54,972 bases of DNA from Folioceros fuciformis (lineage: Eukaryota), in NCBI GenBank assembly GCA_049999805.1, contig JBNGIO010006183.1, positions 72,550 to 127,521 on the forward strand, read 5' to 3'. Position numbers and translations under genes: made by a program. The number at the start of each line of letters is the position of its first letter. Position 1 is the stretch's first letter. Under the pieces are notes generated by a model. It did no database searches and was not told the origin of the DNA. It worked only from the letters and a program-made list of their open reading frames with translations. This document shows positions 17,162-40,701 of the stretch, one piece after another.

Positions 17162-17235
17162 GTCTGGGTGGTGTAGTTGGTCATCACGCTAGTCTCACAC
17201 ACTAGAGGTCCCCAGTTCGAACCTGGGCTCAGACA
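17162..17235 (+). tRNA. tRNA-Val(CAC)
   Basis: Acceptor GTCTGGG/CTCAGAC+A, anticodon arm CTAGT-CT-CAC-AC-ACTAG, T-arm CCCAG-TTCGAAC-CTGGG, and a TTTT Pol III terminator immediately downstream. Confidence 0.95.
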
Positions 17236-19099
17236 CTTTTGACGAATTCTTTTTGTTCCCTGGCCGTCCCTCCACTACCATAGCACGGAGCTTGCGATAC
17301 AGACGACCAAGATTGGCAAGACAAAATTCGAAGCGGACGGTAGCAGACCGGGGTCAAGCCCGAGACCTGTGTGACACCATAAGTTAGGTAACTTAGGTGG
17401 CTGCCACTGGCATCACATGACATACGAAAAAGGTACCTGGCAAACGTCACCGAAGTCCTGCCAGAGATGGGGAAGGGAGGGCCAGGAGCAGGAGAAGCCA
17501 AGAAGGGTAGGAAAAGGGAGTAAAGCTGCGGGCCCACCCACTCATGGAACTTGGGCTGTGGCAACGGGCGAACTGCTAGGCTCATCATCATGTGGCCATG
17601 GCGTCCGATTCCTCAAAAGCGGGCATCGCAGTCTGCAGCTTCATTCAGCTGCATTCTCCTCTCATCAGTCTGCGGTCTTCAGCAGCAGCAGCAGTGCGCA
17701 TAAACAAGAGCTTCGACTGCACTGGTTTATTGGGGATGCTTATCCTAATTGTTGTTCAAATTCCAATCATTCATTCCCCGTGTTCTGGGGTCACTGGGGA
17801 TGCTTAGACAGCACTGTACATACTTGTTGGAATGGCTACATGGGCGGGGGCAAGGGAAGGGAAAGGTATGGAGGGTAAAGCGGGCAAGCAGGCGAGCGGC
17901 ATGGGGGGTGCACACTGCCCGGGGACAAAAAGTTGAAGGGTTAATGGGTTAATTCAGCTTGAACGGTGAGGGTGAGGACAGAAACACTAAATGCGGCCGT
18001 GGGTGGCAGAGCAGGATAAAAGGCTGTGCGATTTGGGGCCCATTGGGGCAATGATCATGTGACAGGCTTAGCGGCGTAGAAGCGGGAGCTGCCAGACTTG
18101 AGTTCCAAAGATAGGCGGGAGCGTACCGGGGGCTTCATTATGGCGCCTCCCTCTCCATTGGCCGGCTTCCTGGAGGCTCCTCATACAGCGCGTCCCTGCG
18201 CCTGTGCCCTGCAGGGCTCCTCGTCGTTTGCGTCCTTCCTTGCTTCCTTGTGGAAATCCTGCCACCTTCGACTCTGATCGTGGAGAATGGGTCGCGAAAC
18301 TGGGATCCCTTTCCCCGGGGCTAGAGCCAGAGTCAGAGTCAGAGCCAGAGTGACGGACAGGGCCAGGGCCCCTCTCCTCAGGCCCCGTGTCCGCGCCAGA
18401 TTCGCCGCTCTCGGATACGCCCCTCCCCTTGATTACCTCTCTCTGAACACAAGTACATCACGCCGCCCAGTTTATCGCACTGTCGCTGCTTCGCCTTCCC
18501 CTCCGACCCTCTAACACTGGCCGATTCTGCTTCGCCATCCCGCTTCGCTCGCGTCCTGCCTTCCCACGGTTGACGGGAGGGGACCCAGGACCGCCCAAAA
18601 CGCTTCATGTGAAAGGAATATTGGCGGAGTAATGAAGGGAGCTGCGTAGGATGACGCTCGGTCCGAGCCCTGACGGTTAATGCACCATCACGTCCGATGC
18701 CTCCCCTGCCATGAAGCAATCCCGGAAGCGGAGAGCAGGCAAGGTGCTCTGCCCTGCCCAGCTCAGCTCATAGCGTTTTTCCAGGCTGCCATGGTATTGA
18801 ATTGAATTGAACCGCTGCGGCAGAGGGCAGGGCAGGTGCGAGGCATGCGCATGGGCAGGGGCATGGGAAGGGGCTCTCTGCCCGACGTTGATATGACTGA
18901 TGAGACGGGTGGCCCCTGGCCGCGTGGAGTTTCCAGTTGGAAATGACATGGGAGCCACCATCGAGGCACAACAGCTGGGAAGGCTCTTGGAGGGCAGGCC
19001 TGGAAGAGCAACTGCAATGTACTGCATGTTGCTAGTGGCAAATGGGGAATTTCTCTGATGAGCGGGAAGGCAACCCAGGGCAAGGCACGGCAAGGAACG

Positions 19100-20431: not shown

Positions 20432-20512
20432 GCAGCTTTGGCCGAGTGGTTAAGGCGTGTGCCTGCTAAGTACATGGGTTCGCCCGCGAGAGTTCGAATC
20501 TCTCAGGCTGCG
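20432..20512 (+). tRNA. tRNA-Ser(GCU)
   Basis: Acceptor GCAGCTT/AGGCTGC+G, anticodon arm TGTGC-CT-GCT-AA-GTACA, variable arm GGG-TTCG-CCC, T-arm GAGAG-TTCGAAT-CTCTC, and TTTT shortly downstream. Confidence 0.95.
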
Positions 20513-21338
20513 AGGGATGCCTTTTGTTCCAGTTCTCGTCCCCTGATCCCTATCTTTACATGTAGGCTAAGTTGTGATGCAGCCCTAGGGCTCTTGCTTG
20601 CGGAGAGGCACTTGTGCTGAGGAGCGCGACCCGCGAGGGTTCGTAAACAGAAGTACGCAGATGCCTTTATCACCGCACCGACCAAACGAGACACAAGTAT
20701 CGAGGCGACGCAAAGAGTAGGGTAGACGGAGTCCACCCGATTACGAGTGGGTTAAGTTGTAGCAAGGAGGACGGGCTGCGGGTCGCTGCACAGCGGGAAC
20801 GGGATTTGCACACGCACAGTCGACGGCACCGGCATCGGGACTGGGCCTTGCCACGGTCGCAGCAGTCGCAACTGTGTCACCGCTGTCCTACTTGCGGGCC
20901 TGGACCCCACTCCTGGAACCTGGTGGGCCCCTTACTACTGTCTCGGTGCCAACACAAGACCAGGCAGGTACCGACTTGGCACCAGATTGGCAATCGGGAA
21001 TCAAAAGGGAACCGGATTTCTTTTCGCTCTTCTACACACTCCGACAATACAAGGTGGATAACTTATGAGGATTCGGACAGAGAGCAGTAGATTATATATT
21101 TATAGGCTAATTAGCTTTATGAACTTATTGTTCTTCTTCTTCCGTAAATTAGCTCATAAAGAAAGAAATATATTAATGATATACTATTAAAAATAATATA
21201 ATATGATATTATAATATTTAAGTTTGAACAATGTAGCACTTAGTTGTCGTAAACAATAGATCAGTGCAAACATACACACAAGCATTCACTCATAAATGGT
21301 CATGTGAAGCCAGTGAAACATAAGTATGTATGTTCTCT

Positions 21339-21990
21339 CAATGAAAAGTCAGCTGGAAAATATCCATCACGTGTAATAACATGTGCCATTCAATCACATT
21401 TAGGATGTACCAAACTGAGCAGCGATAAGTACCATATCATTTGCTCATCCTACTTATTTCATTTGCTCATCCTACTTATAGATTGCGGAGAATCATCCAT
21501 CACGGGCAATAAGCAATGAAAAGTCAGCCAAAAAACATCCCTCTTGTGTAGTAACATGTCTGATTCAAGCACGTTTGGATGTACCAAACTGAGCAATAAT
21601 ATGTACCATATCATCCGTGCATCATACACATAGATTGCGGAGAATCATCCATCATGGGCAATAACCAATGAAAAGTCAGCTGAAAAACATCCATCATGTG
21701 TTATGACATGTCTCATTCAATCACATTTGGATGTACCAAACTGAGCAACAATATGTACCATATCATCCATGCATCATACACATAGATTGCGGAGAATCAT
21801 TCATCACGGACAATAACATGTCCCATCCAATCATGTAGTTCTGACAAACTGACGTATCATGCCGAACAATAATATGCATCTCATTCGTGCACTGTACACA
21901 TAAACTGAGGAGAACAGCATAGCGTGTCTCATTCAATCAATTAGTTCTGACATAAATATGCATCTCATTCGTGCACCACACACATAGACT
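21339..21990. repeat. ~150-bp tandem repeat (3 full copies plus degenerate partials)
   Basis: caatgaaaagtcagc...gatgtaccaaactgagc...tagattgcggagaatcatccatcacgggcaata recurs at ~21339, 21514 and 21666. Confidence 0.9.
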
Positions 21991-22065
21991 AAGAAGAACA
22001 AAATCCATTGCTTTATGTACCTCAAGTACAACACGTGGGAAGTGATACAGAGGTCGACTAACGGT

Positions 22066-22558
22066 CACATTCAAAGTACAGGAGCTTTAATGTTATAGTG
22101 TTGGGTTCCTCGTAACACAAACTACCCGCGAAAGACATTCAAAGTATACGAGCTTTAATGCTATAGCGTTGGGTTCCTCGTAACACAAACTACCCGCGAA
22201 AGACATTCAAAGTACAGGAGCTTTAATGTTATAGTGTTGGGTTCCTTGTAACACAAACTACCCGCGAAACACATTCAAAGTATAGGAGCTTTAATGCTAT
22301 AGTGTTGGGTTCCTCCTAACACAAACTACCCGCGAAACACATTCAAAGTACAAGAGCTTCAATGCTATAGTGTTGGGTTCCTCCTAACACGAACAACCCG
22401 CGAAACACATTCAAAGTACAAGATCTTTAGTACAAGAGCTTCAATGCTATAGTATTGGGTTCCTCCTAAGACAAACAACCCGCGAAACACATTCAAAGTA
22501 CAAGAGCTTTAATGCTATAGTGTTGGGTTCCTTCTGACACAAACTACCCGCGAAACAC
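22066..22558. repeat. 68-bp minisatellite, 7 copies
   Basis: acattcaaagtacaggagctttaatgctatagtgttgggttcctcgtaacacaaactacccgcgaaa starts at 22067, 22135, 22203, 22271, 22339, 22407 and 22489; one unit carries a short internal duplication. Confidence 0.95.
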
Positions 22559-23834
22559 AAGAGGCAGAAATACACGTGTAGTTAGACTAGGGAGGAAAAA
22601 CATTGAAGGCCGGTATGGTTGTTATTGGTACAAAAGTTACATAAGTCTGCCGCATGAAGTTGATACTTTTGTGTCCATCTAGCAATCAAGAACATGAACC
22701 TTACAAACTTGTTGTCTTTGTTGATGACTTATTGTCTTCAAGTTGTTCAAGGTGTCTCTTGATGAGTGTTTAATTCTTAGTCAAGTAGCGTAGGGAAGGA
22801 TGCACAATTTTGTCATGCATTGGGGCTTAATTGTGGAGTTATGTTTTGGCTGAAGTGGTATGCGTGTAATGGAATTATGACTAAACTTCTCATGTTCTTG
22901 TCCTTGAATTATGGATTAAGTTTCATATTAGACATTCTATCTTGGTGACTGATGTTCCACTCATGGATATTTTGGCGCTATCTGATTTGAAAATATGTTG
23001 TGGGTACAACATGCATATGTACATGTCCATATATCTTGAGAATTTTTATACTTCTCTTGCATCTTGGCTTGATAGAGAACATATGTATATGTATGTTGTT
23101 AGAAACATTTTAAAAGAAGCATTTAGTAGTAAGCAGCCATATATATGTTCGCACAGCTCATGGAGGAGGAAGGGTATGGTGTAGCAGAGTAGTAGTAGCA
23201 CACCCAATCCAAGGAAGAAAATTCGGTTAAAGATCGGCAAGCAGGATTAGGCTGTATATATGGATGGCATGGAGTAATTGTGAAAGCGGGGACGATCGCG
23301 GCGGTTGGAGTAGCCCAGGCGGGTGCCTTTAAGCACCATAACAGCATGCAGTCCTGGAGGCCACGGCCCGGCAGACGACTGGGCTGAGGCTCATGTCATG
23401 TCGACAAGACGTCCAGGAGCGCCACGAATTAATACGCTCAAGGACGGCGTGGTGAAGCATCGCACAGCAGCGGGGCCGGGGCCCTGCCTCTGGTTTTGCA
23501 ATTTAAGAACGGCCCTACCAAGGATGGTACCGGATTAACAGAGTGAGAGCGCCGTAGCATGACTACTGATCCACAGCCGTGATGCACCCACCTCACAATT
23601 TCTCAGGCCCAGCCACCGGTCGGCGCAGCTTCAGACTGTACCACATTGTTTGCGTCAGCAGCTAGGCTCAGGCCTCCCAGCACACCCCACTCGCACGCTT
23701 TCTCTCCTTCACTTTGCCCTTGCTGAGCTCGCGCCTTCCTTTGGAACCCTGGGCTGCTCGGAGTGGTGTGGAGTGTGCTTGCGGGGGAGGGACACGGACA
23801 CGGGCTGCAGAGAAAAGTGGGAGCTCGCGACGGA

Positions 23835-25697
23835 ATGGGGGAAGGGAATGTGTACCCGGATGGCCGCGACAGTTTGGAGGACATCTTCAGCGCTAGAGGG
23901 CTTCCCAGAAGGAACTGGCCGATGCCGCAACCATTGGAGAGGAGGGATGCCTTCATGATGCCCGTTGCTATTTGGGCGCTGGCTCGCCTGCCACAGTCGG
24001 AGACTGACATCCGCCCGCGTAGCCCTGACTCCTTTGAAGAAGAGTGGGATAGGATGGAGGCTGAGCTATCGGATTGGGACGAGGATGAGCCTGCGGCAGA
24101 AGGTGGGGACTCGGCGCCATCGCACTTGGAGACGGCTCCAGCTCCGGTTCCGCTACCGCACGGCTATCGGTCCACGCGAGTGCTCATTCCTTTCAGCTGC
24201 TTTCACTACACTAACGACGTCGACCTCAACGGCCCAGCAGAGCATCAACTCAGTGCGTCAGCTCGGGAGCGAAGGATGGCTGAAGACGCCGAGTTCGAGC
24301 GGGCCCTGAACGCCGGCCTTTTCGCGCCACCTCGCCACTGGACTGACGAGGAGAGAATGATCCAGACTCCGGTGCTGGTGGACAGCCGGCGGTGCTTGGA
24401 TCTGCAGCCTGAAGAGATGGAAATCATCTGTCGCAGCCGCGGGGAGTGCAGTACCGGATCCGGATCTGAGGTGGGCGAATCATCGGCCAGGCGCCGTTTG
24501 CTGGAAGGGCCGGGCTTGTCTACCTGGGCTTGGACTGTCGGAGGCCCTAGCATGCCCGGTGGCAACGACAACGTTAATGCTCAATCACCCAACCTCAAGC
24601 TCAAGTCCGTGATCGAGGTGAGTATTGCCGTTGAAGTTTGAGGAGGCCATGGAGGATCCCGGTTGAGAGGCATGCTGACCCCCCCTACGTTTGCAGGATC
24701 CGGAGGACCTCTCCACAGGATCGACGAATATCTATGCCAACTTTGCGGCGGGTGTGGGTCACCTCTCATCACTGGCACCGGAAACCCTGGAGGATGAACT
24801 GAACCGGCTAACGCTGCAGCTGGGGTCTTCCGATGCTGTGGCAGTTGATGGTGCTCCAGGGGATGCCCTGCCGAGCTCTACGAAAAAAACCAAGAAGCGA
24901 CAGCTACTCGGAGGCAAGGAAGGGCGCGAGGGCAAGATCATGGCAGTTAGCTCATCGTCAAAAGATCGCGTAAGGAGAGCATTAGCCACCGCTGTATTTC
25001 ATGCTGAAGCTCTTGTACGTGAGACTCGTCGGGTTGCAAGCTCACTCGACATCCAAGCCAGAAGCTTTCGCGTGAATCGCGTTAGAAGAGCATCCAGGCA
25101 CCACAACAACACACGTCGACGGAGGGCGACACCAGCAGCTGAAGGAGGAGCCTCTGCTTTCCCCTCATCCCCAGGATCGAGAGTCGGAATGGACCTGAGC
25201 AGATTACCGGTCCTGGACCAGCTGTACAACACGCTTGTGCAGCATCCGCCGAGTCCCCAAGGTTTCGCTCGGGGGAGTCTGACTACTGCACGAGGTTAGA
25301 GGTTAACGAGGAAGCTCTCAAGTAAACTGAAGGAGTTTACTTGCGAGCTCTTCAATATTTTGGCCAGCGTCTGGCATGAGCAGCTGATGCTAATCGTGAC
25401 ACGTGTGTGCGTCGTAGGAGCTGCACATCTGGAGTCCACGGGACTGTTGCCTGATCTCAGCCAGCTTACTCTCGTGGAAGAGGCTGACTCTGCTGTCCCC
25501 GCTGACTCAGAAATGACGGGACATCACCGTAAGCCATCGTTCCGATTCCGATAATCACATTGCTAGGGCCCAAGGGTGTCTGGCTGCAGCTTTTTCCCAT
25601 GTTGTTGAAAGCAGCTAACAGATGTGCGTGAATTCCAGCAGGGGTAAGCGGGCCAGCCGATGGCCGCAACACTTCTGCGTCAGCTGGATCGCCCTGA
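23835..25697 (+). CDS. Protein of unknown function, island paralog A (4 exons)
   Basis: Frame-consistent GT-AG model: 23835-24617, 24697-25294, 25418-25528, 25639-25697 (NAGNAG acceptor). Clear peptide similarity to paralog C (e.g. EFERALNAGLFAPPRHWTDEER, PETLEDELNRLT, AAEGGASA). Confidence 0.7.
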
Positions 25698-26779
25698 GAC
25701 AGGTACCATGTGCAGCGTGCAAGATGAAGACATCAACTGCTCTACCAAGGATCGAGATCATGGGAAGTGCTAAAATTGTTTGACATTCTCTCACACGGTG
25801 CAATGCTTTGTACATTTGGCAACAGATGGTCATGAGGCCATCTTGGAGGCTTCTGAAGACGATCGATGCAGCTTGCCTGCAGGGCCAATTCCAAGACGTT
25901 CTCAGACATTTTGTAGTAGCCAGTAGCTAGTAGCAAGTGGCCACGAGCCCTGGTTGTACCCGAGGCTCGGAAACTCGTTACAAACTGGGCTAGACGCAAG
26001 CTCTTTCTGTGCTCACGTCGATATTCCCTCCAAACACTTCACATCATTTTGATACCCGACCATTTTCTGCAATCCTGTGTTACAGAAGAGGAGAACATCA
26101 GGAGCGTCGTGGTGTGGACTCCCACTGTAAACCTAGACAAGTAGATTCAATCTTTCTTATTTTAAGAATGTTCACCTACGGCGTTCCGGGTCCAGGCGTT
26201 TCACGATGGGAATCCCCTGGTGAACCTATTTTCCCAAACCCAGATGCCATAGAGCCGTCGGAGTTGTAAAAGGCACGTTGAGACGTTGAGAAGACGAGGT
26301 CACCTTCGAGGAAACCCCAACTGCACGCAAAGTGCAGACGGGAGGCCTGCTCACACCGGTTACTGGCTGGTTCGCGGTTTAAGCAAGCCGAACGGGGCAG
26401 ACGCGCGTGACCGTGGAGTCCACTTGTAAGGTAACGGGAAACGGGGAAAGGCACTTTCGTTTCGCTTTCTTTTCAGGGGACGTTGGAAGACTGTGGCAGT
26501 AGAGCAGCTGGCACGCGTCCACACCCGGTGGGGCCCCACTGCCTACTCCCAACCACAATGAAGTGTGTCTCGGTACGCACACGTCAGGGGTGCCTGCCAA
26601 CCACGTACCGCGTTGGACAGCAGTCCGTCGCTACTGCGATGGTCGCAGGCGGGGCAGTTTGTCCAGCGTTGAACAGTCTTCCGTCCCGTTCTTTTTTGTC
26701 TGACTGCGGGTATTCTACTGGCCAGGCGTGATTCTACCCCCGGGTCCTTAAACCCTCCTCTCATTTCAATCCTTATCAA

Positions 26780-28700
26780 CTTTTGTCAATAGAGAAATTG
26801 AGGTTATAAAAATCATAAAAAAGTTATATAGTAGTATATGTGCTAAATAGAAAGAAAATTTGCATGACCTCTTATGCACTTCATGGTATTTTAGTTGGTA
26901 ATAATAACTCGCTAACACACTATGCAATTATGCAATGTATAGATCGTAAGAGGTATAGTTTGTCTTAATTTAAGTTTGTTTTACTCGAGGTGTTGTTTGG
27001 TGACTTGTCTTCCATGGACAATAGAGACACTTCAAGTTATAACATACTTGAAGTATCAAACTTGAATTGTCATAGTTTATCGTGGTTTTCCGTCTTTTAA
27101 GTGTGCATGTCTAGGTTGTCTCACTAGAGGTATTGAAAACTTTGTCTTAGTGGCTGGTCTTTATTTGAGTTTATACTTTTTGATCTAGAGTTTGTTATAC
27201 TTAAGCTGTTGTTAAGCTTATCTTGTTTGAAGTGTATGTGTGCGACACTCAATTGTTAGAGTGTGTGTCAATTAAGGTGGACTACGGTGACTTTGTTTGA
27301 ATGGCCCCAATTGGTCTTTGTCTAACTGTATGCTATTTGTTCTCAAGTTTGTCTTACTCAAGGTGTTGTGCGGCTTATCTCATTTGACGTGACGGGTACT
27401 GCACGAGCACGTTAAGTTTGTCCATCTCACTCAAGGTGTTGTCCTTGTTCGACTTATCTTATTTGAAGATGATGTGACTCAGTTTGTGCATCTGGTATCT
27501 CAAGATGTTGTGAACTCAAGGTGTTGTCCTTGTTTGACTTATCTTATTTGAATATGATGTGACTCAGTTTGTGCACATAGTATCTCAAGGTGTTGTGAAC
27601 TCAAGGTGTTGTCCTTGTTTGACTTATCTTATTTAAATATGATGTGACTTAGTTTTTGCACGCTGGTATCTCAAGGTGTTGTGACTATTTGTGAGCACGT
27701 TTAGCTTGTCCATTTCATTCACAGTGTTGTCCTTGTTTGGCTGATCTTATTTGAATATGATGTGACTTAGCTTGTGGAGAGTGGTATCCTTGTCCGATTG
27801 ATCTTACTTGATGTGACTCTATGCACGGCTAATCTTAAGTTTGTCTCACTCCAAGTGGTGCCCATGATGTCTCACAGACCAAGTGGTCTTTATCTAAGTT
27901 TACACTTTTTGTTCTCAAGTTTGTCTTACGCAAGTGTTGTCCACCCTGGTCCCGACATCTAACTATATTTAAAATGTTTGTGTGCACGTAGAGTTTGTGT
28001 CTCGTAACCTCGTGTGTGTCTGACTTTATCTTGATGGCCTTCAAGATGTTGTCCGGTTGGCTTTGTCTTGGTAACCTTGTCCTTGTGTGTGTGAGCACAT
28101 GAGGTGAACTTTGTCTTGATCAAGGTATTATTTAGTTTTGTCCTAATGACCTTGTCCTTGACGTGCATGACTATGTGAACACATCAAGTAAACTTTGTCT
28201 CACGCTACATATTACTTGGTTTTGTCCTGATGATCTCATCTTTGAAGTCTCAATCAAGGTCAAGGTGTCCTGGTGACCATATCTTTTGAAGTGCACATAA
28301 AGCAAGGTCAAGGGCAAGGTCATTAGGACAAAGCCAAACAACTTGAAGTCTCACTCAACTTGGTGAATGTTGAACGACTTCGTCTTATTGACAAGCTTGT
28401 GTTTGTCTAACTTATAGTGTTGTACAACTTTGTCTAGCCTTCTCCCTCGTCCTTGTCGAAGAGCTTGTGTCATTGGAATTGGAGTTTGTCTTACTCAAAG
28501 AGACAATGTGTTATCTATCTTTGAAGCATATATCCATTTTCACTTTGAGTTTAAAATGTCACTCCAAGCTGCGTGTTCCAAGACTTCGTAGTCAAGGTTT
28601 AATTGTAGGACCATACTGTCTTGGAATAAAATCTTCATCCTACATTCTCAGACTTAATATGAGCTGCAACAAACAAACAATATGTACATACATATGTAGC
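26780..28700. repeat. AT-rich, TTGTC-rich degenerate repeat block including an 85-bp tandem repeat (27430-27770)
   Basis: ctcaaggtgttgtccttgtttgacttatcttatttgaatatgatgtgac starts at 27430, 27515 and 27600, plus a partial copy. Flanks are dense in ttgtc/ctcaag words and have no credible ORF. Confidence 0.75.
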
Positions 28701-28919
28701 AAAGAAAACATGCAAGAAGAAAGTGAGACAAAGGCTGGGCTGGGCTGGGCTGCGGCTCAAAACACCTTGGCGCGCGCTGGTGCCTACGCTCTGTATTTAT
28801 ACAATACTGTATGGCAGTATGTGGTACATTTGGCCATGCCACGGTTCCCGCCCGATCGAGCGACGGTAATACAAGCATTACGACACGCGGCGATCCCCTC
28901 CATGTCGGGTCCCATCACC

Positions 28920-29130
28920 TGGAGCGGGAAGCGGGAGCTTCTGGATGGTGTGTTGGGACCGGGGAGAGAGCGGGATCGGCCCATCGGATCTAGGTCGGAA
29001 GCGGGAAGTGGGAAGCGGGAAGCGGGAGCTTCTGGATGGTGTGTTGGGACCGGGGAGNNNNNNNNNNAGAGTGGGATCGGCCCATCGGATCTAGGTCGGA
29101 AGCGGGAAGCGGGAAGGAAGGAGAGTGGGG
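28920..29130. repeat. Short GC-rich direct duplication spanning a 10-N gap
   Basis: gaagcgggagcttctggatggtgtgttgggaccggggag...gggatcggcccatcggatctaggtcggaagcgggaag occurs twice. It may partly reflect assembly across the gap. Confidence 0.6.
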
Positions 29131-29697
29131 ATCGGGCTCCGGGCGCGACTACGAGCGAGCGGGTTCGAGTTCCCTTCGACCGGCCACCATTACGTCCTTC
29201 CCACGTTTGCTCCTTCCAATTCCAGAATGTGCCATGATTCCTTTCCGATTTACCTCTGCATGCACCGACTTGGCCGAAGCGGCCAGTGCCGTTGCCCAAC
29301 CCTATCGGACAGCCCAGGCAGGCGCAATAAACCAACATGTGTAGACAGTCAACATTAGGCCGATCCGTGCGTACAGCAAGAATCAAGCAAGTTCAGGCGT
29401 GACGGAGCCGGCTCAAAGACTGAGCCCAGGAATCGGTCGGCCCCAGAATTGCCAGCTCTGGACTGTACGTATGTACATTCCTGGTGGCCCCCCTTGCCTC
29501 TCCTCGGGCGCGTTTCACCCGCCCTCCTCCCCTCATCCTCATCACTTCTTTCCTCGCACTCTTGCGGGTGGCGGACGCGCGGCCTGAGCGGCGCAGAGTG
29601 AGGTGCCGGTAGAGCCTCTGGCGGCCATACCAGCGCCAGCTTCGTGAATCTGGGGAGGAAGCTGCGAGAGCGCTGAGCACAGGATTTGGAGGGGAAG

Positions 29698-30745
29698 ATG
29701 GCACAGGGAGGTCCTTCTCGCGGACACCGGAGCGGGTTCGAAGGCGGTCCGAACCCGCAGCCGAAGAAGGTAAAGCCTGCGCAATGAAGAGTTGCACCCC
29801 AAAGTTGTTTTGGAGCCTTGTTGTCTGGCTGCAGGAGCCCGTGAAATGTGTGTAAGAAGGTCCCTTTAGCGTTGCGACGCATCCTTGACCACCACCCCGT
29901 TTGCATTTGCAGGAGGAGATCGAAGACAAGAACAACGAGCCGAACGGCATGGAGGACGTGCCCGTGGACGGCACCCGGGAGCAGTCGGAAGCAACGCAGC
30001 CGGGAGCGCCGTCGCTGGTGCCACAGGAAGGGCCCAAGAAGAAGAACAAGAAAAAGAAGCGGCACATGAAGGGGAAGTTTCCGGATATCCCGGACAAGCT
30101 GGAAGACGACCCGGAGGTGCCCTTGTGCTCCGACGGAATGGTCTATCTGTACACGCTGAGCTTCATCGCGAAGCATGCCTATCCATCCTCGCTGGAACCA
30201 GAATTCGGAAAGTCTCTGGCCGATGCTGCGAACGATGCTTTCGAGCGGTACGCGAACGGCGATACTTCATGCAATGGCCTTCGGTTTACCATCTCTCCAG
30301 CAGGTGAGATCCCGAGCACATTCATGAGGACTTAGATGGGAGTCGTGTATTTGAGATAAACTGCTCTTGCTCTTGATTTTTAATTTTTGCAAACGGTTCG
30401 CATGACCAGCTGCTGATCATATTCGTGTGCCGGCTTCCTTCACAGAGCCTGATCCGGACACCATGTGGCGTCGAGCGAATCCGAACCAGGTCAGTGTTGT
30501 GGAGATGGCTCACTCCAACGACCCCGCAGACTCCGAGCTGGCTGAGCGCAGCTCGAACGCTTATGGTAAGGCGTGTTTTGCATATACGTTCTGTTTCATC
30601 TTACAGTAAGGGCTAGGCTAGGCTAGCGCTAGCGTTGTGTGTAGCTGCAGCTTGTGCCATGTGGTTCAAAACAGCTGACAGACGTGCGTGATTTTCAGGC
30701 ATGACAAGCGCTCCAGCTGGTGGTGACATCGCTGCCGTCCCATAA
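29698..30745 (+). CDS. Protein of unknown function, island paralog B (4 exons; short, Lys-rich NLS-like tract)
   Basis: Frame-consistent GT-AG model: 29698-29769, 29913-30303, 30446-30565, 30699-30745. Exons 3-4 and their splice contexts are homologous to those of paralogs A and C. Contains PKKKNKKKKR. Confidence 0.65.
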
Positions 30746-31649
30746 GAGGTAAACATCCGACTGAAGTCCATTCATCTAAGATGCGATGTGCTAACAATGT
30801 CTCTTAGACGACCAAGAAGCATGGAAATTGATCAAAGCTAGCTTACTACTTGCCTTCGACCCGCTCTCACACCTGTTGCTGTTGTCTACATTTGCCAACA
30901 GATGTGGCCGTCGTGGATACGTGAGATGCGTGTCCTACCAAGCTCCGTTGAACAGAGATATGGGGAGACGGATATATAACGTATGTTGGTCCAGGTGCTA
31001 AGCTTACGGTGTTACAAAGCGTTGAGACCCAGGAGACGTAGACGATAGATGCAAGCGGGCAGAGCGCACCTGCGGCACACGTCGAAGAATTTAGATACCA
31101 GCCGTCGTAGGGACCCCGTGCCTTGAGGAACTTGTCAAAACTTGCTCGATCCAAACGCTCCGCTGAAGCACTCAGTATGTTATTTGATATTAAGTTTTGG
31201 TTTGGTTATGCTTTAATAATAATATATGTTTTGAGACCTGACGAGAGAAAAGGCCTCTTAAAAGCGTGGCCGTCTGTGCAAGAGTTTCTTAATCATTAAT
31301 TAGCTAAGCCATGACGAGCGACAAATCATAAGTACTGTATGTATGTAATTAGGCGGACTGCTAACAGCCTAACCAGGAAGCCCCCAGTATAGAACGATAT
31401 TAGACTGTGGACGCCGTCCACACTGGCTGTCACTCAGTAACGGGTATTAAGGCCGGAGGACCTGTCCGTGACTTATTGTCAGGGAGAACGTAACGGGAAA
31501 GAAGAAACGGGATGCATATGCATTTTGAGGACCGTTGAAACAAAGGCTGGTCTGGGTTGGGTATCGCGGTCGCAGCAGTCGCAACCGCGACACCGCTGGC
31601 TGTGTCCCTTGCCTGCCACGCCTCGCTGCCTACCTCCACTGGAATAAAG

Positions 31650-32560
31650 TCTGTCCCGGTACCCACATGACATCACAGTCCTGTCCCGGTACCCACTGGG
31701 CACCCTGCTACCCGTGTCGCAGTACCTATCCTCTGGGCACCAAGCTACCCGCACTTATCTGTCGCGGTACACAACTCACTGGGCACCCCGCTACCAGCAC
31801 TTATCTGTCGCGGTACATAACCCACGAGGCACCCAACTACCCGCACTTATCTGTCGCGGTACACAGCTCACTGGGCACCGAGCTACCCGTGTCGCGGTAC
31901 ACAACCCACTGGGCACACCCAGCTACCCGCTTTAGTCTGTCGCGGTACACAACCCACTGGGCACCCAGCTACTCGAACCGGTCTGTCGCGGTACAGAACC
32001 TACTGGGCACCCAGCTACTCGAACCAGTCTGTCGCGGGACACAATCCACTGGGCACCCAGCTATCCGCACTGTCTGTCGCGGCACACAACCTTCTGGGCA
32101 TCCAACTCCCCGCACTAACCTGTCGCGGTACAGCACCCCACGTTGGGCCCCCGCTACCCGCACCCGTCTGTCGCGGTACACAACCCACAACCCGCACTAT
32201 CCAGTCGCGGTACCCACTCAACTGGGAACCCAACTACCCTCACTAGTCTGTCGCGCTACTCTCCCAACTGGGGCCCCAACTACCCTGACTGGCGTGTCGA
32301 GGTACCCAAGCCGATGGGCACCCCGCTACCCGCACTAGTCTATCTCTGTCGCGGTACCCAAGCTATAGGCACCACGCAAACCCCACAGTCTGGGCTGACT
32401 GGGCACCCGGCTACCTCCGGTCTTCGCACCCCACACAGCTCCAGGCTGCCACCTCGGGTGTCTCGGTACCGTCCCAGCACCGGCAAGCTGCCACATGCAG
32501 TGTACCCTCTGGGCACCCCCACCCCGCAACGTCCACTGTCGCGGTGCGAGCACTCACCCA
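31650..32560. repeat. GC-rich ~46-bp minisatellite, ~19 degenerate copies
   Basis: Core ctgtcgcggtacacaacccactgggcacccagctacccgcac repeats with a period of ~46 bp (e.g. 31759, 31805, 31851, 31937, 31983, 32029). Confidence 0.92.
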
Positions 32561-32827
32561 GTTGTCTGCCTGCCTTGGACGGCACGTCAGTGGGTGACAA
32601 GGTTCCAAGACCCAACCCCGCGCACTGGCGTTGCAAACCCAGGCTCGCCTTCAGGCTGCGGGCCCATTTGTCGTTTGGCATACCCCAAGTTAATACAATC
32701 AAGCTAGCTGTGAAGAGAACATTTAACCAAATTATATGGAAGTGATGATACCTAAGAACCATAAAACAGTAGGAATGATCAATTGAGATAGTATCTTTAT
32801 GCGTACAACTTGGCCTTTGCTTCTTGG

Positions 32828-33130
32828 GTCGATGATGAAACATCATCAATGTTAGATTGAGATTGTTATGCTTTTGTCCTTGGTAGTTGTCTTCAAGGGA
32901 CTTTGTGCATTGAAAGGAACATCTATCCGTATATTGTGTCCGACTATGTCTCTGTTTGCATTTGGTGTTTGTCTGCGTCGATGATGAAACATCATCAATG
33001 TTAGATTGAGATTGTTATGCTTTTGTCCTTGGTGGTTGTCTTCAAGGGACTTTGTGCATTGAAAGGAATGTCTATCCGTAGAATGTGTCCGACTATATCT
33101 TTGCTTGCATTTGGTCTTTGTCTGCGCGGG
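32828..33130. repeat. ~149-bp direct tandem duplication in an AT-rich TTGTC-rich block
   Basis: gtcgatgatgaaacatcatcaatgttagattgag... at ~32828 and ~32977, each beginning with the inverted repeat gatgatg-aaa-catcatc. Confidence 0.88.
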
Positions 33131-34668
33131 CTTTGTCCTTTATAGAAGCTTTTAGTTTTGTCCGTAGAATTTGTCCGACTTTGTCTAGAGCNNNNNNNNN
33201 NNNNNNNNNNNNNNNNNNNNNNNNNNNNNNNNNNNNNNNNNNNNNNNNNNNNNNNNNNNNNNNNNNNNNNNNNNNNNNNNNNNNNNNNNNNAGAATTTGT
33301 ATGACTTTGTCAAAAGTGTAGTAGTCCTCGTATTGTCTCTCTCTGTTATTATAGCTTCTGTTTGACTTTGTGAAGAGTTTAGTGTTTGTCCTACGAGCTA
33401 CGGTCTCTCTTCTGCTGCAATAGTTTCGATCGAACTTTGTCTACAATGTTTGCACAATTTTGTACATGGCATTTATTTGACTTTGTCTAACATTCCTGTC
33501 ACTATAGATAGGTGTCGTCACTAGAATGAGAGTTGGTTGGACCTTCATGTTTAACATTGTCCTATTGACAGCATGTCATATCTTCTAAGGAATTCATGTC
33601 CTTATTTTGATGACTTGTGCTATCATACCTTTATCCTTGTCTTTAGAGACATGTATACGCATATGAAGTGAGAACAAAGAGTCTAAGTTTCATGTACTAT
33701 ATGAGTTTTGTTATTCCATATTTCTTTAATTTTACTCTATTAAAGTTTTAATAGCATAAATACTAGTTCAGGACTTATATATATGTATATATACTTACCA
33801 TACGATAACCATCGACGAGATAACATATACGACGACATAACGTACAATACATGTACATACTTACATGTGTCCCGACTCCCAAACCCACGGTGATAATTTC
33901 GAAATGGGGAACACTTTGGGGGAGGAGGGGAGGGATGGCGCCTGGGAGGGGCTACGCCTACGCCTAGGCTAGGCCCAAGGCAGGAAGGGCCATGTGAAGT
34001 CAACATCGGAGCGATTCGAGTGTACAGCACAATCAGGGAGGGGCAGGAGGCCAGAGCCTGCCAGACGGCCGGGCCTGAACGGAGTGCGTCTGTGCAAGAC
34101 GTCCAGGCCTCCAAGGGAGGCGACGAATTAATACGCAGACTGAGAGTGTGTGGTGGAGGAGCGGGGACCGAGCCGAGCTGGGTCGGACCGGAGCCTCCTC
34201 GTAACATTAGCAAGGCCCCTCCCAAAGGCTTGTACCCAATTACCCACGTGAGAGCGCCGTAGCATGAGTAAATGACCCGCTGGCGTGATGCACCCAGCGC
34301 ACAAATTATCAGCCGGGGCATCGCCCGGCTTCACCCATTGCCAGCTCTGGACTGTACTGTACGCCATGGTTTTCGTCAGGGGCCACAGACCCACCCTTCT
34401 TTCCTTAAGTAGCCCCTCGCCTCTCCCTCTTTGCCACCCACCATCACTCGCTTTCTCGCATTTGCTCTCGGCCTCCTCAGCTCTCCGGTCTTCTCTTCCC
34501 TTCTCTTCCCTTCTCCTCCCTTCTCTTCTCTTCTCTTCTCTTCTCTTCCCCTCTCCTCTCCGCTCCGCTCTTGCCGGGCTTCTGCCTTCTGCCGGAAATT
34601 GAGCTCTGCTTCGCTACCGCTAGCGCCTTCGTGGAGGTCTGACAGTCTCAAAGTCCCCAGCAGCAGCC

Positions 34669-37463
34669 ATGGGCGGAGACTGCCTGGACTCTATTGACGA
34701 CATCTTCAGCTGCATTTTGAGCGCAAATTGGGCGCTGCCGCCACCAATCGAGGAGACGCTTGATTTATTTGGCGCTCTGGACGACGGGCTGGAGTCGCTC
34801 CTGCCTGAGCTCCAGGGCGAGTGTGAGCCTGAGCCCGAGCCCAAGGCTCAGGTTGAGCCTCTACCTGAGCCTGCGCCTGACTGTGTGGTTGATGGCTCGT
34901 GGACAGATGCTATCAATGCTATCGATTCAGTCGATGTGGTTGTGAGTCAGAATCTGGCCGCTGCTGCTGCTGGTGCTGCGGCGGCGGGTACCGGTGCGTA
35001 TGCCGAGGCGCTGCCCCATTCCCCTTTCGGTGAGAATCCCGCCGGCTATGGGGCGAACTGGGACACGATGCGAGGTCACTACGGAGGGAACGCCTTCCAG
35101 TCGGAGCTCGGAGTGGGAGACTGGACAGTGCCAGAAGTGACCTACCACGTTATTGAAGGTAGAGCGGGGCGCTTTGAATTGTCGTGGAGAATGTGGACCA
35201 TGTCGAACTTATCCATGCCTTTCTATACGGAGCCCACTGACTCTGTCACAATGACTCCTGCGCAACGTTCATCGGCGGAGGACGCATCTTAAATGCTTGC
35301 TCTTATTCACTTTGTTCATCGCGCAGGGTATGACGAGGATGGTCGGGACGTGGAGGATGGCCACCGTGCTGGAGCAGGATTCGGACCAGCCGACACAACA
35401 CCAGTACTTCGCGCTCCGGTTCCGCTTCCACCCCTGGACGGACCGGCCTACATGCTTCCAGTGCCGCTGTGCTCGCTCAACGGAGTCATCCATGAGCAGC
35501 AACACTCGGTTACCAACATCTCCGGGAGTCTGTCGGCCCGCTACCGTCATGTAGCGGATGAGGAATTCGAGCAGGCCCTTACCACGGGGCTCTTTGCACC
35601 ACCCCGGCGCTGGACTGATGAGGAGCGCGTGATCCACCCCCCAGAGCTGGTCGACACCCGGCGCTGCTTGGACCTGCAGCCTGCTGAGCGGGAGACGCTG
35701 AGGTGGACCGGAGGGGACGGCATTAACGGATTCGCACCAGCGGCGCAGGGTCAGGGGAGGGAGGAATCGATTGTGGACTCCAATTTCACCCATCCCGAGC
35801 CCCGTACCGCGTCCAGGGCTCCACCTGTGAGGCCGCGCCGGCAAAGGCCCAGCCGCGCCGGTAAGTCACGAGCAGCCAAGGCAAAGGCTGCGCAAGCGCA
35901 AGAGGCGGCCAATCAGGCGATTAAAGACAACGATCCTGTTAAGCAGGTGAATGTGAACTTGAAGTTGCGGGATAAGGAGGCAGTGGAGTACACGAATGGA
36001 GATCAGACCACGTTAACCTCGCGTTTAAATTTGCAGACGGCTCACGAGAAGAACGTCGAGGCCAAGAGTAACGAGCCTGTGTCCGTGCCGGTACGAGTGG
36101 TGAAGACTCCGTTTGGGCCTGCCAGGATTCTCCCAAGGCCTTACCCAAGCTCGAGGACGGCATTTGTACAGGCTCCAGCAGAGTCCCTGGAGGATCAACT
36201 GCGGCGAATGACAGCTCCATCTCGGCAACTGGGTGGCTCCTCCAATAGCAAGACAAAGGAGCTCCAGCTTTGGAACCGCAGCATGGATGTCCAAAACCTC
36301 AGGGCTGTGGAGGATGCGATTTCTGTGAAGAGAGCCAGGGCCAGCACGGTGACCAGCATTGACTCGCAGGCCGAGAGTCACTTGTCGGCACCCGTTCGGG
36401 TGCAAGTCCACGCTGTGTCACAGGCTCAGCGACCACGCCCTGCCAATGCGAATGCCCAGCCGGATCCATACCAAACAGAGCCTCACGCTGGTACCTCACA
36501 ATGTCTGCCAGTCACATTCTTTGGGTGGAGTCCGGTGAACGGATCTACAGGGGCAGTGTACAACTTGCAGCCCGCGGCAACTGCTGAAGGAGGAGCCCCT
36601 GCGTTGCTCTCAGCGTATGGATCCGGAGCTGTGCCGGACCTTCCTCCTGCTATGGGCTTCTTTGGTAATCATGAATTTGCCGTGGTTGATTCCTCCCGTC
36701 CAGATTATGTCATTGCTTGCGACTCCGGCGCAGGATGGACTTACAACGCTATTATGCAGTCTGAGAGGGCTTATAGCTCTGCTGAGCCAATAAGCATCCA
36801 TGCCCATGAAGAGCGTGTAGCAGGCTACAGTACTTCGGGGCCCCTGTTCCCCTATGCCTTGATTGACCTGCAGCCAGCAGCGGCTTTGAATTATCCTTTA
36901 CCGGTGCAGCCCAGTCCACCAGCTTATGGCCAGGCCGAGAACCCGAACGTGCTTCGACAGCAGCCGTCGAGCCCACGCCGATTCACTACTGGGGGGACTC
37001 TGACGGCTGAAGGTGAAATCTCCCTCCAGAGATGTATGAGCTCGACAAAGCAGTTTGATCGAAACCAAATTTTCAGTATTTTGTTTGGCATGCTGACTGA
37101 TTCCTGTGTGGCTGTCGTAGAAACTGATCAGGACTCTACGGGACGGGGAGTACATCAGACCCAGGAGACTGTGTCGGAAGACGATAATAATTCTGCTGAG
37201 CCCGCAAACCCAGAACTGGCTGGACACAGCCCTGGCGATGATGGTAAGGCATCACTACCAAAGCATTTGGGCTTCATCTAACAATGGGCTAGCATGTGTG
37301 TGTACTTGTGCCTTGTGGTCTGTTGTCCAAACAAGCTTAAGCTTATTATTCAATTTGTGTGTGACTTTCAGGGACACGCGGTTCAGCTGATGGTGGGAGG
37401 ACACTTCGCTGCCCGACGATCTATTGGCCCCGATTTGGAAACACGGGGGGATCTCCAAAGTGA
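34669..37463 (+). CDS. Protein of unknown function, island paralog C (4-5 exons)
   Basis: Model: 34669-35158, 35327-37012 (probable internal intron 35947-36036), 37121-37243, 37372-37463. A phase-1 junction joins the 207-aa and 662-aa ORFs. Homologous to paralogs A and B. A (TTCTC)n tract lies in the leader at ~34490-34560. Confidence 0.72.
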
Positions 37464-38899
37464 GCTCCAGCCTGGCTATAGTTAACATCTCAGATCCAGT
37501 CATAGGAGCCATGTCGACATAGCATGCCTTGGCCAATCATCACAAAGCTCGATATTTTGGAGCTCCATGATAGATGAGCCTCGAGCTTGGAGGCCAAACC
37601 TCCACTGCATCTTACGCATTAGATACAACCCTCCGAGGGGGCCTGTCCCTTAAGCAACTTGTACTCGCCCTCGTAACATAATGTTCTATTACATTTTTTC
37701 TCATTATTCTGTGGACGCCGTGGACTTATGGGCAAATTCCCAAGGTTGGGTTACAGATATGAAAACCCAAAGCAAAGGGTACAAATTCTTAAGGTGGGCA
37801 TTAATTTGGAATAACCTTCATCAACCTCTTCTTCTTAGAGTAATCGCTCACCAAAACCAAGAGACTGAATTCACGGAATTAAATATGTGTGAGGTTTTTT
37901 TCAAACAAGTAAAACTTTATGGAATTAAAATATTATTATAATTTTTTTTATTTCATATATATATAAAAATTTCCTAGTATATATATAAATAGATTTTAAT
38001 TAATTATATTTCTCATTTAAGGATGGAGGAATCACCATGTGACAAGAAAATAAGCCATCATAAAAGAAGTTGAAAAAAGAGGGCACAACTTAACCATAAA
38101 AATTCATTATGTTTTTATATTCTGACTTAAATAATGCCAATTTGCAANNNNNNNNNNNNNNNNNNNNNNNNNNNNNNNNNNNNNNNNNNNNNNNNNNNNN
38201 NNNNNNNNNNNNNNNNNNNNNNNNNNNNNNNNNNNNNNNNNNNNNNNGCTTGAAGCATTGTAAGGCATACATTATGTGGCGAGTGCAATATATGGTAAGC
38301 ATACATCAATCATGGCACATTGCATAAATTTGATGCACTATGATTGTCACAAAAGGCAAAGATGTTCGAGTTGTCTTTCTATAAGGAAATGTGATGTAAA
38401 GATTATGTTAAGGACTTACCACTTTGGATGGGTAGAAAATAAGATATAAAGTATTCAGAACCTATGGCTTTGGATGGGTAGAGAATATGGCGTGAAGGGT
38501 ATGTTTAGGACCTATGACTTTGAATGGGTACCAACTATGAATCACTAGGCTCTTTTCCAAGGTATGAAAGTTAACAACTAGCAGTGTGAAGATGGAGAAT
38601 TAGTGTTTATGGTCTTGAAAGGATTAGTATGAGTACATGTTGGCCTTGCAGTTATTGCCCATATGACTGTTATTTGTGAGATGAACAAATGTTTATTTGA
38701 TAATCATACCAGTGCTTGTGTTATAACTATATGGCTATAAATGTATATTAACAACATGAAGAGGACACAAAGATGGATAGATTCACATGTACATATTCAT
38801 ACTAGAATTCATTCAATTATGCACCCATATGATTGTCAAATCATAATAAATTGTCCTTAGTGCATGTTGCTTAAGTACTATGACAATTTATTATACTTT

Positions 38900-39420
38900 G
38901 AACCATCTTTTGTGGTTTCCCATTGGGAGATTGCAGCCATGGCCAGCCATTATGCAATTTGAGATGTCATGTTCTCAATGGCTAGGGGGTGTGAGTTTCT
39001 TCATGTAGGGAGCATCTTTTACTTTGCGCAAAAAGGTTTCGATTATAGGTGACCATTTTTTCTCTAGGCGGAATAGGTTTGTATCATTGATGTGGTTGTT
39101 ATCGATCCCACTAGGGATTCGACCCCTTGGATGGGCGGTAGAGGGTTGTGCAAACGCAAAAGTCCAAAAGTATTCTCCCTTGCAAGACCTACATATTTTG
39201 ATCTGGGGCTATGGGCAAGGACTTTTCAAGGTTTATCAAAGAGTGCGCCAAGGTTTATCAGAGTCTTAGGAATGGTGTTCTCCCTCTTTCCTCTGTGGTG
39301 GCCTTCTTTCAACAACGCATATTATTGCTTTGCAAACAGCATTGGCCGATGCAAATTTTAGGATAGCAACAAGCGCAGGTAATGCGACTTTTTCACCCGT
39401 GGTAGGTATACCTTTTGTTA
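38900..39420 (+). mobile_element. Decayed 3' fragment of an RLE-type (CRE-like) non-LTR retrotransposon
   Basis: Across frameshifts it reads NHLL..SHYAI*DVMFSMAR, then IDVVVIDPTRD..AVEGCANAKVQKY, RFIKECAK and AFFQQRI..ALQTALADA. This order matches the zinc-knuckle plus restriction-like endonuclease C-terminus of CRE/R2-group elements. Confidence 0.65.
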
Positions 39421-39900
39421 TTCTACATCATGACATTTTGGGAGCAGTAGATAGTTTATATAATGATATTCAAAGAGGCTAGTTTTTATAATGACATTCG
39501 TCGAAGAGGTTAGTACCCCTTTTGGCCCTGTTACATCATGACATTTTGGGACATTCTACGAGCAGTAGATAGTTTTTATAATGATATTCAAAGAGGTTTT
39601 TATAATGATATTCAAAGAGGCTAGTACCCCATCATGACATTTTGGGAGCAATAGATAGTTTTTATAATGATATTCAAAGAGGTTTTTATAATGATATTCA
39701 AAGAGGCTAATACCCCTTTTGGCTCTTCTACATCATGACATTTTGGGAGTAGTAGATAGTTTTTATAATGATATTCAAAAGAGGTTTTTATAATGATATT
39801 CAAAGAGGCTAGTACCCCTTTTTGGCTCTTCTACATCATGACATTTTGGGAGCAGTAGATAGTTTTTATAATGATATTCAAAGGGGCTAGTACCTTTTGG
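39420..39900. repeat. ~100-bp tandem repeat (~5 copies) with an internal 23-24 bp subrepeat
   Basis: ctacatcatgacattttgggagcagtagatag(tttttataatgatattcaaagagg)x2 ctagtacccct recurring. Confidence 0.9.
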
Positions 39901-40701
39901 CCTGCTCGAGTTGTTCCAAATTTGGAGTAGATGAGACTTTCCATCTCTTTTTCAAGAATAGACAATATAATTTTGTGGTTTCCATGTGTTGGATGCTTCA
40001 TAATATACTTGATATTACTTTGAAAGATGATTAATAGAAGTATCAACAACCTTTAGAAAAATCTTCAAGAAAAGTTTAACTCATGCTAAATGCCATCTAG
40101 GACCACAAGAAATGTGCAATGTGAAATTAGTAGGGTTTGGAAACATGGAAGTCATATATATTTAGATATTTAAAAAACGGATACCAATCTTAATAACAAT
40201 AAAATCACTTTTCTGGAGTGATGGGACTTCCCTAAAGATGACATGCCAAGCAGCATCCTTCCATAAAATACGAAGGTTGATTATTAAAATTAACTTGTAT
40301 TTATCTTCAAATTAAAATTAGCTTATATTCATCTTGTAGTGTTTTTACAATTTCTTCAATTTCTGAGAAAGTGGATTCCCATGGGCCTAGCCTTCTTCTT
40401 ACTACCAGAATTCGCATCAGAGTCAATTTCATAAGAGGGTCAGAAGAAATCATTCCGTACATGACTGAAGGCAAGAGCCTGGCTCCAATGTAATTAGGGG
40501 GCAAAATTGACTGGATTGTTCGTACATCAGGGTGATAAGTTACATCACCCTTTAAGAGTCATCAATCGCATGTGAAGACTCAATGAAACCTTTTCGACTT
40601 GGCAACGTCGATCCTTGCTTCTGACTAATTTATGAACATACTAGACTGTCCTGAGAAAGAGGTGCGTGGTTGGATAGTATACAATGGAGGCACAAAACCC
40701 C

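Follow-up and report, generated by a model that had tools for sequence, protein, structure and literature searches.

Several plant genes are known to be controlled by tandem repeats, among them FWA and SDC of Arabidopsis and b1 of maize, and plant microProteins are short paralogues that keep only an interaction domain and inhibit the full-length protein. In the hornwort Anthoceros angustus, tandem clusters hold at least 9.82% of the genes, according to the portion of that genome report available to us (PMC7027989). Here we describe a cluster of three genes, A, B and C, in Folioceros fuciformis (assembly GCA_049999805.1, contig JBNGIO010006183.1, positions 72,550 to 127,521, forward strand); this stretch of 54,972 nucleotides is the window to which all coordinates below refer. 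The three genes constitute an undescribed family of the lineage-restricted type that arose by ordinary means. The explanation that best fits the observations as a whole, and that we regard as likely, is that an ancestral unit was duplicated in tandem, that its three expressed copies diverged, that the tandem arrays beside them are unrelated products of slippage, and, more tentatively, that the encoded proteins are disordered adaptors or regulators.

Gene models and duplicated modules

Three spliced genes on one strand had been proposed by a preceding sequence-only reading; upon rebuilding they gave open frames and GT-AG introns, and RNA contigs matched them:

23713..26066, plus strand: transcript of gene A; an RNA contig (2042 letters) is identical to the spliced model
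23835-24617, 24697-25294, 25418-25528, 25639-25697, plus strand: coding exons of A, 516 amino acids
29555..31238, plus strand: transcript of gene B; four GT..AG joints listed, and a contig of 1113 letters equals the model
29698-29769, 29913-30303, 30446-30565, 30699-30745, plus strand: coding exons of B, 209 amino acids
30749-30901, plus strand: intron in the 3′ untranslated region (UTR) of B, a listed RNA joint
34669..35158, plus strand: first coding exon of gene C, predicted
35159-35326, plus strand: phase-1 intron found in C only, predicted, outside RNA cover
35327..37699, plus strand: rest of gene C, with exons 35327-35946, 36037-37012, 37121-37243 and 37372-37463 (stop); RNA records 3 and 4

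The transcript evidence comes from one run, typed as RNA by guess and stored as contigs, whose GT..AG and CT..AC joints and empty intergenic bins are consistent with RNA. Across 23100-42600 the run gave 20 joints, and the 15 listed comprise intron 1 of A, introns 1-3 of B, the 3′-UTR intron of B, nine CT..AC joints from the neighbouring gene and one non-canonical joint inside a repeat; introns 2 and 3 of A were taken from record length and bin depth. Record lengths of 2042, 1113 and 1457 letters correspond to the exact spliced models of A, B and the 3′ part of C, and 11 of 11 compared depth bins agree with the spliced prediction (for example, 19.6 observed in A against 19.58 expected if spliced and 30.5 if unspliced, and 4.3 observed in C against 4.3 and 6.75, respectively). 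Depth was zero in the spacer bins 26355-28307 and 31563-34817, and this run held no further spliced transcript between A, B and C. Contig depths (30.5 for A, 318 for B, 4-7 for C) are unfit for ranking genes and were not used to rank expression.

Gene C differs from the earlier model by one intron. Record 3 ends at 35946 and record 4, at 1457 letters, consists of 1427 plus 30 letters of upstream exon lying before 36037; C therefore has an extra 90-nucleotide, phase-0, plus-strand intron at 35947-36036, homologous to intron 1 of A and B, which the sequence-only reading had read through because it contains no stop. With this correction, and with exon 1 of C uncovered, the spliced contigs fit A, B and C to the base, providing the junction support that had been proposed as a check. 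The same reading had credited the genes with two shared terminal introns of phase 1; the last two introns are indeed of phase 1 in all three genes, and the shared homologous introns number three. The 3′ UTR of C reaches about 37699, and its protein has 766 amino acids overall. Its first-exon model is built on weak similarity to the start of A (blastp E 0.006; DNA 62% over 77 nucleotides, E 0.013) and on the position of the promoter block. The intron at 35159-35326, being present in C alone, implies either gain in C or precise loss in A.

Two side observations concern splicing. The RNA contigs break exactly at the donor of the 35947-36036 intron and bin depth is in surplus there, hinting that a minor form keeps this intron, which would insert 30 residues without a change of frame. 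Separately, 25703-25828 of A is homologous to the end of the 3′-UTR intron of B yet unspliced in the A contig, suggesting that the intron was lost or is retained in A.

Each gene lies in a larger module, and homology between modules includes the following segments:

20854..20885, plus strand: GC-rich head of module 1, homologous to the module-3 head at 31567-31598 (32 bp, 90.6%, E 4e-5)
26533..26586, plus strand: head of module 2, homologous to 31620-31672 (54 bp, 74%, E 3e-4)
23356..23624, plus strand: promoter block of A, homologous to the C promoter, with identical stretches of 14, 20 and 13 bp whose ends lie near 23437, 23562 and 23590
29347..29468, plus strand: promoter remnants of B, homologous to the C promoter at 33998-34357 (E 3e-4 and 3e-7)
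34046..34329, plus strand: promoter block of C, with homology to the A promoter block
24291..24471 in A and 35563-35743 in C, plus strand: conserved core of 60 codons (72% DNA and 58% amino acid identity), absent from B

A sensitive module-by-module comparison returned 13 collinear plus-strand matches (three A-B, four A-C and six B-C) that span the GC-rich heads about 3 kb upstream, promoters, exons, introns and 3′ UTRs, and no match in any of six module-versus-flank control comparisons. The upstream homology noticed beforehand was borne out (A-C, 290 bp, 67%, E 7e-25; B-C, 97 bp, 68%, E 3e-7), and the identical runs in the A-C promoters are clustered (permutation p 0.026). All nine same-position intron pairs aligned better than shuffles (z 2.4-10.2, with at most 9 of 500 shuffles reaching the score), eight of them above the control maximum (the exception being B-C intron 2, z 2.4), where controls comprised 63 comparisons with introns of the neighbouring gene (mean z 0.44, maximum 2.55) and 18 off-position pairs (maximum 1.97). 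In pairwise global alignments the introns were 61-76% identical, as similar as most coding blocks (63-72%), and synonymous divergence (dS) among the copies was about 0.5-1.3. Since all three intron positions are homologous and the matches collinear, the duplicated unit is the whole module of 5-6.5 kb, and since homology is collinear over whole modules, the modules are old tandem duplicates. Collinear modules, intron homology and transcribed copies thus uphold the proposal of a family amplified in tandem; the three same-strand genes lie within 14 kb, where adjacent homologues within 100 kb with few or no spacer genes count as a tandem array.

A and C have a common region of 138 residues (42% identity, E 3e-21), while B has just 24 codons ahead of the first shared intron and is without the A-C core. 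The shared middle exon measures 598, 391 and 976 nucleotides in A, B and C, so that remodelling, expected to be mainly N-terminal, proved to be both N-terminal and central. A second B-C block in the middle exon, plausible by eye, is not claimed, as 70 of 1000 shuffles reached its score.

On the favoured explanation, the ancestral unit of 5-6.5 kb comprised a GC-rich head, an AT-rich spacer, a promoter and a gene with the three shared introns. Two ancient tandem duplications of this unit gave rise to the cluster, with unequal crossing-over as the probable mechanism. All three copies stayed expressed while in-frame insertions and deletions accumulated in weakly constrained, disordered coding sequence. 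C, the longest, is probably closest to the ancestral form; A retained the N-terminal start motif and the core, with a shorter middle exon, and B the promoter, three introns and C-terminal tail, with the core lost. The arrays are unrelated local slippage, of a kind present in most AT-rich spacers of the contig.

In a variant of this history, which we think unlikely, B is a chimera produced by unequal crossing-over between A and C, in which C-like sequence at the 5′ end is joined to A-like sequence at the 3′ end. The head and promoter of B match C only, its intron 3 and 3′ UTR match A best, and informative sites (A=B / B=C / A=C) shift from 25/78/88 in the 5′ part to 100/103/88 in the 3′ part (Fisher p 3e-5 and 9e-8), with 18/14/5 in intron 3. 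This shift allows B as an A/C recombinant and is no proof of one, given that three sequences without an outgroup yield branch lengths and no topology. A slow 5′ end in C explains the site counts equally, the promoters of A and C (0.62) are closer than those of B and C (0.56), the 5′ alignments are poor and bridged by C, and the 3′ UTR of B also matches C (E 0.005).

Selection, relatives and products of the family

The A-C core is under purifying selection (60 codons; dS 0.79; nonsynonymous divergence, dN, 0.26; their ratio, omega, 0.33; 95% interval of the nonsynonymous-to-synonymous proportion ratio, pN/pS, 0.28-0.71). Across all A-C blocks (147 codons) omega was 0.54 (pN/pS interval 0.49-0.86), and the last two exons of A and B gave a pN/pS of 0.55 (0.40-0.75), below 1. 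Most blocks outside the core evolve nearly neutrally yet keep their frames. Codon register is kept in 338 of 350 columns of four A-C DNA alignments, and substitution-only neutral simulations left frames open in 0 (A), 29 (B) and 0 (C) of 2000 runs at 0.25 substitutions per site, with frames closed in 1982, 1686 and 1998 runs, respectively, at 0.1 substitutions per site. Kept frames and purifying selection on the core agree with the earlier suggestion that intact frames reflect selection. We saw no sign of positive selection, of which three old paralogues are a weak test.

To the extent that databases cover such sequences, the family matched nothing known, as the sequence-only reading had supposed. 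Family searches used exon-level pieces, and the large homologue searches left out the B tail, the C first exon and the A middle exon. Pfam gave no family for five and for three exon-level proteins (none at E 5), word-seeded homologue searches retained 0 of 2977 and 0 of 508 candidates, PHROGs gave one weak match among six proteins (E 0.006, over 25 amino acids of a Pro/Glu stretch), Atlas gave no usable match in two attempts, and 5.8 billion proteins held nothing credible. PDB sequences yielded two matches, at E 0.46 and E 0.49. In viral and metagenome contigs, none of 343 and none of 600 stretches proved to be a relative, and Foldseek with the low-confidence B model gave a best E of 5.8. A profile search of 1.84 billion representatives returned a single match, covering profile positions 4-39, to what by eye is an AP2-array-like repeat protein; we treat it as unrelated. 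In the literature, judged from titles and the beginnings of abstracts with supplements unread, we found no description of the family or the locus. Searches of the species' own assembly (87.2 Mb, 7240 contigs) with the core, the B middle exon and 3′ DNA, and the C promoter, middle exon and first exon recovered this locus alone, and such searches miss copies below about 45% identity (the C middle-exon query missed A). Even the flanking kinase, which resembles land-plant D6PK, is just 54-62% identical over its kinase region to the best 120 of 1208 matches, and the blanks in the family searches are therefore weak: they show no conserved known domain, and not species-level novelty.

The absence of near relatives from databases, to which the kinase attests, would also suit strong divergence from a known plant family, to the point where homology escapes detection, as would weak PDB matches of the core profile, one of them to the linker that precedes the B3 domain in VRN1 (E 0.49). 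We consider such an origin improbable. The alignment to VRN1 includes the His-tag, and the core is not followed by anything like a B3 domain (no Pfam match at E 5). Among 1.84 billion proteins the profile search offered only the repeat protein over positions 4-39, and neither the two Atlas attempts nor the fold search (best E 5.8) was of use. A B3/REM (VRN1-like) transcription factor was rejected as a candidate, with no B3 domain in Pfam and a match at linker level only (E 0.49).

In the three proteins FoldIndex is below 0 for 56-72% of residues, the maximum 19-residue hydropathy of 0.68-1.32 indicates no membrane segment, and the proteins are acidic (isoelectric points 4.9-5.5) with a basic stretch in each (clusters at residues 322-331 in A and 64-79 in B). 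AlphaFold models, of low confidence, contain short helices only (predicted local distance difference test scores of 47 and 53). From these features, the products would be soluble, largely disordered adaptors or regulators, probably nuclear or cytosolic, with acidic stretches and one basic patch; the core of about 60 residues, with a predicted helix and an aromatic- and proline-rich motif, would fold on a binding partner, the rest serving as linker. This assignment, with the core as a short fold-on-binding module, is tentative. A bolder extension, which we rate as improbable, would make the family a hornwort-wide, undescribed group of disordered regulators built around a new binding module of 60 residues; the duplicates would have split the ancestral parts, and B, short, core-less and seemingly abundant, would act as a natural competitor or tuner of A and C. 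If that were true, the locus would be a compact model of how orphan disordered proteins gain functions through in-frame remodelling and intron gain or loss.

Several points weigh against the duplication-and-divergence explanation or its parts. All transcript evidence depends on the single run assigned to RNA by guess, and the first exon of C and the following intron are without RNA cover, which proves nothing either way. The middle exon of B is not significantly similar to that of C (70 of 1000 shuffles) or A (145 of 1000). Selection blocks were defined by frame-blind DNA alignment, and blocks chosen in this way lean to conservation; of the shared exons on which dN/dS had been proposed as a check, the A-C core and the last two exons of A and B fell below 1, and the tails of A-C (pN/pS 0.90, 0.58-1.45) and B-C (0.77, 0.48-1.41) did not do so significantly. 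At 0.1 substitutions per site, neutral evolution leaves the frame of B open in 314 of 2000 runs. C is without a 5-of-8 basic cluster, having only a +8 window, and the low AlphaFold scores, obtained from one or two sequences, are no proof of disorder. Given the sensitivity limit of about 45% identity, three members is a lower bound.

Tandem arrays, mobile elements and surroundings

Five tandem arrays lie in the cluster:

21339..21817, no strand: array of 152-bp units in the AT-rich spacer of module 1
22066..22559, no strand: array of 68-bp units, at a single site in the species' own genome
27405..27788, no strand: array of 85-bp units in the AT-rich spacer of module 2
31649..32361, no strand: GC-rich array of 46-bp units, apparently grown from the module-3 head, at a single site in the species' own genome
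32825..33126, no strand: array of two copies of a 149-bp unit, 65 bp before an assembly gap and possibly longer

The background for array counts was 117.6 kb of readable sequence, made up of the window outside the cluster and 79.9 kb of a further 140 kb whose remainder was N; there and in the 16.9-kb cluster, arrays with units of at least 40 bp were called with Tandem Repeats Finder. A different repeat block had been described before each gene; the arrays exist and their units are unrelated, with no cross-match among them, and an excess over the background is not shown (5 arrays against 15 in the background; expected 2.2, Poisson P 0.07). Among AT-rich islands, an array is carried by three of three in the cluster and by 9 of 12 outside, and because most outside spacers also hold long-unit arrays, the reading of this region as a repeat island is unsupported. 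By bases, the arrays occupy 2037 of the 16,911 bp of the cluster (about 12%), compared with about 2.6% of the background, mostly through the 46-bp and 68-bp arrays. The tested units of 68, 46 and 85 bp had no other site in the species' own genome, in a search that skips very common words, and the 46-bp array appears in alignment to derive from a short motif in all three heads. As the units are mutually unrelated, the arrays arose after the duplications, and they are best read as products of local slippage.

Other repeats were noted in and beside the spacers. The spacers before B and C (26601-28800 and 32601-34000) differ from the other 13 islands in a strong T-rich strand skew (-0.21 and -0.15) and in enriched 5-mers that both have in common; they show no alignable similarity and may descend from a common ancestral minisatellite, since decayed. 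Upstream of B, two copies of about 90 bp (88%) surround a 10-N gap at 28923-29116, possibly an assembly artefact, and an inverted repeat at 28057-28348, in the spacer before B (35-bp arms, 89%, 144 nucleotides apart), could form a hairpin and has no RNA cover. Outside the modules, positions 38918-39975 hold an AT-rich element that contains a 103-bp array. Another copy of this element lies on the same contig, about 28 kb beyond the right edge of the window (621 bp, 74.6%, E 1e-119), and an RNA contig from elsewhere matches the element in part, as for a dispersed repeat.

The suggestion of a repeat-regulated locus, in which small RNAs or methylation at each upstream array would govern its gene, as in the case of FWA, SDC and b1, finds some favour in the arrays of all three AT-rich spacers, in their high coverage of the cluster and in the widely differing contig depths, though depth cannot rank genes. 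We nevertheless regard it as very unlikely. The upstream arrays do not exceed background in islands (9 of 12 outside) or in count (P 0.07), their unrelated units date them after the duplications, and their distance from transcript starts or the start codon, about 1.1-1.8 kb in the upstream direction, puts them beyond the conserved promoter blocks. Short, scattered arrays also occur in Anthoceros; in A. agrestis, units over 30 bp form only very short, unclustered arrays, in the part of the source available (PMC8075897).

Still less likely is a mobile origin, with the modules as non-autonomous elements (Pack-MULE-, CACTA- or Helitron-like) that carry cargo or as remnants of an endogenous virus; a version of this idea, cargo of an unrecognised mobile element, had been raised before. 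In its favour, the module heads can still be aligned 3 kb upstream of the genes, and a short palindromic motif recurs at 31405 and 37709, with a palindrome at 31407-31421. Against this, the 25 longest of 217 inverted repeats include none that links the module ends, although old terminal inverted repeats could have decayed and the ends have diverged too far for base-exact placement; heads, spacers, arrays and exons were found at this locus only and not as dispersed copies, within the limited sensitivity of the searches; no Pfam match was obtained, helicase domains included, and PHROGs gave the one weak match among six proteins; and viral and metagenome contigs held no relative. No transposon hallmark was found. 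The palindromic boundary motif was rejected as a transposon end, the 13-mer not being enriched (9 matches against 5 for the control), and a 16-bp promoter motif matched A and C only (2 matches, control 2). That the copies are decaying pseudogenes or mis-called frames, to which near-neutral pN/pS outside the core and the low depth and uncovered first exon of C might point, can be set aside as highly improbable in view of the exact spliced contigs, the core omega of 0.33 and the intact frames.

The window around the cluster is gene-dense, with about 50% GC and short introns. On the right, the cluster is bounded by a minus-strand multi-exon gene, a putative DENN gene by its label in the sequence-only reading, and on the left by a tRNA gene:

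20432..20512, plus strand: tRNA-Ser(GCT) gene (ARAGORN, Rfam), left boundary of the cluster, outside the duplicated unit

Three isolated tRNA genes lie in intergenic DNA (Leu 1714-1797, Val 17162-17236 and Ser 20432-20512), and Rfam found tRNAs only in the window. The flanking kinase gene, at 14123-17020 on the minus strand, is an intronless D6PK-like AGC kinase of 965 amino acids with a long low-complexity N-terminus. Elsewhere in the assembly (C1919:3950-4891), an intron-containing LCIB-like gene gave two collinear exon matches above the Pfam cut-off; LCIB occurs in hornworts and algae and in no other land plant, according to the part of the source available (PMC8075897), and so serves here as a lineage marker that points to a hornwort.

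Comparison with known systems

Like FWA, SDC and b1, the three genes have arrays upstream of each; unlike in those systems, the arrays here have mutually unrelated units, postdate the duplications and occur at background frequency, and the present evidence reveals neither a repeat-based control system nor a new mobile element. B resembles plant microProteins in being a short paralogue without the core of A and C, and differs from them in its length of 209 amino acids, in a shared tail that is weakly conserved and in an interaction-domain role that is only putative. The closest general likeness is to taxonomically restricted (orphan) gene families, which arise through duplication followed by divergence and expand in tandem. 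As in those, no homologue is detected, the products are of low complexity and predicted to be disordered, purifying selection is weak, copies lie locally in tandem and the genes are transcribed. The cluster departs from typical orphan families in that A and C are long (516 and 766 amino acids) and intron-rich, and in that restriction is unproven, the databases being without a near relative; long, intron-rich genes fit old duplication rather than de novo birth.

As in the tandem clusters of Anthoceros, the paralogues are adjacent and on the same strand, in a compact genome of about 50% GC with short introns (PMC7027989, as far as available). The expanded families named in the available part of that source (cupins, PPR, CYP) are known families and the A/B/C family belongs to none, though supplementary cluster tables might list it. 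Within such a setting, the cluster illustrates duplication at the scale of a whole module, in-frame remodelling and an intron in one copy only, with introns about as well conserved as most of the coding sequence. Hornwort-type genomes hold many unassigned genes, and to these the cluster contributes three RNA-verified models (one corrected) and a defined conserved core.

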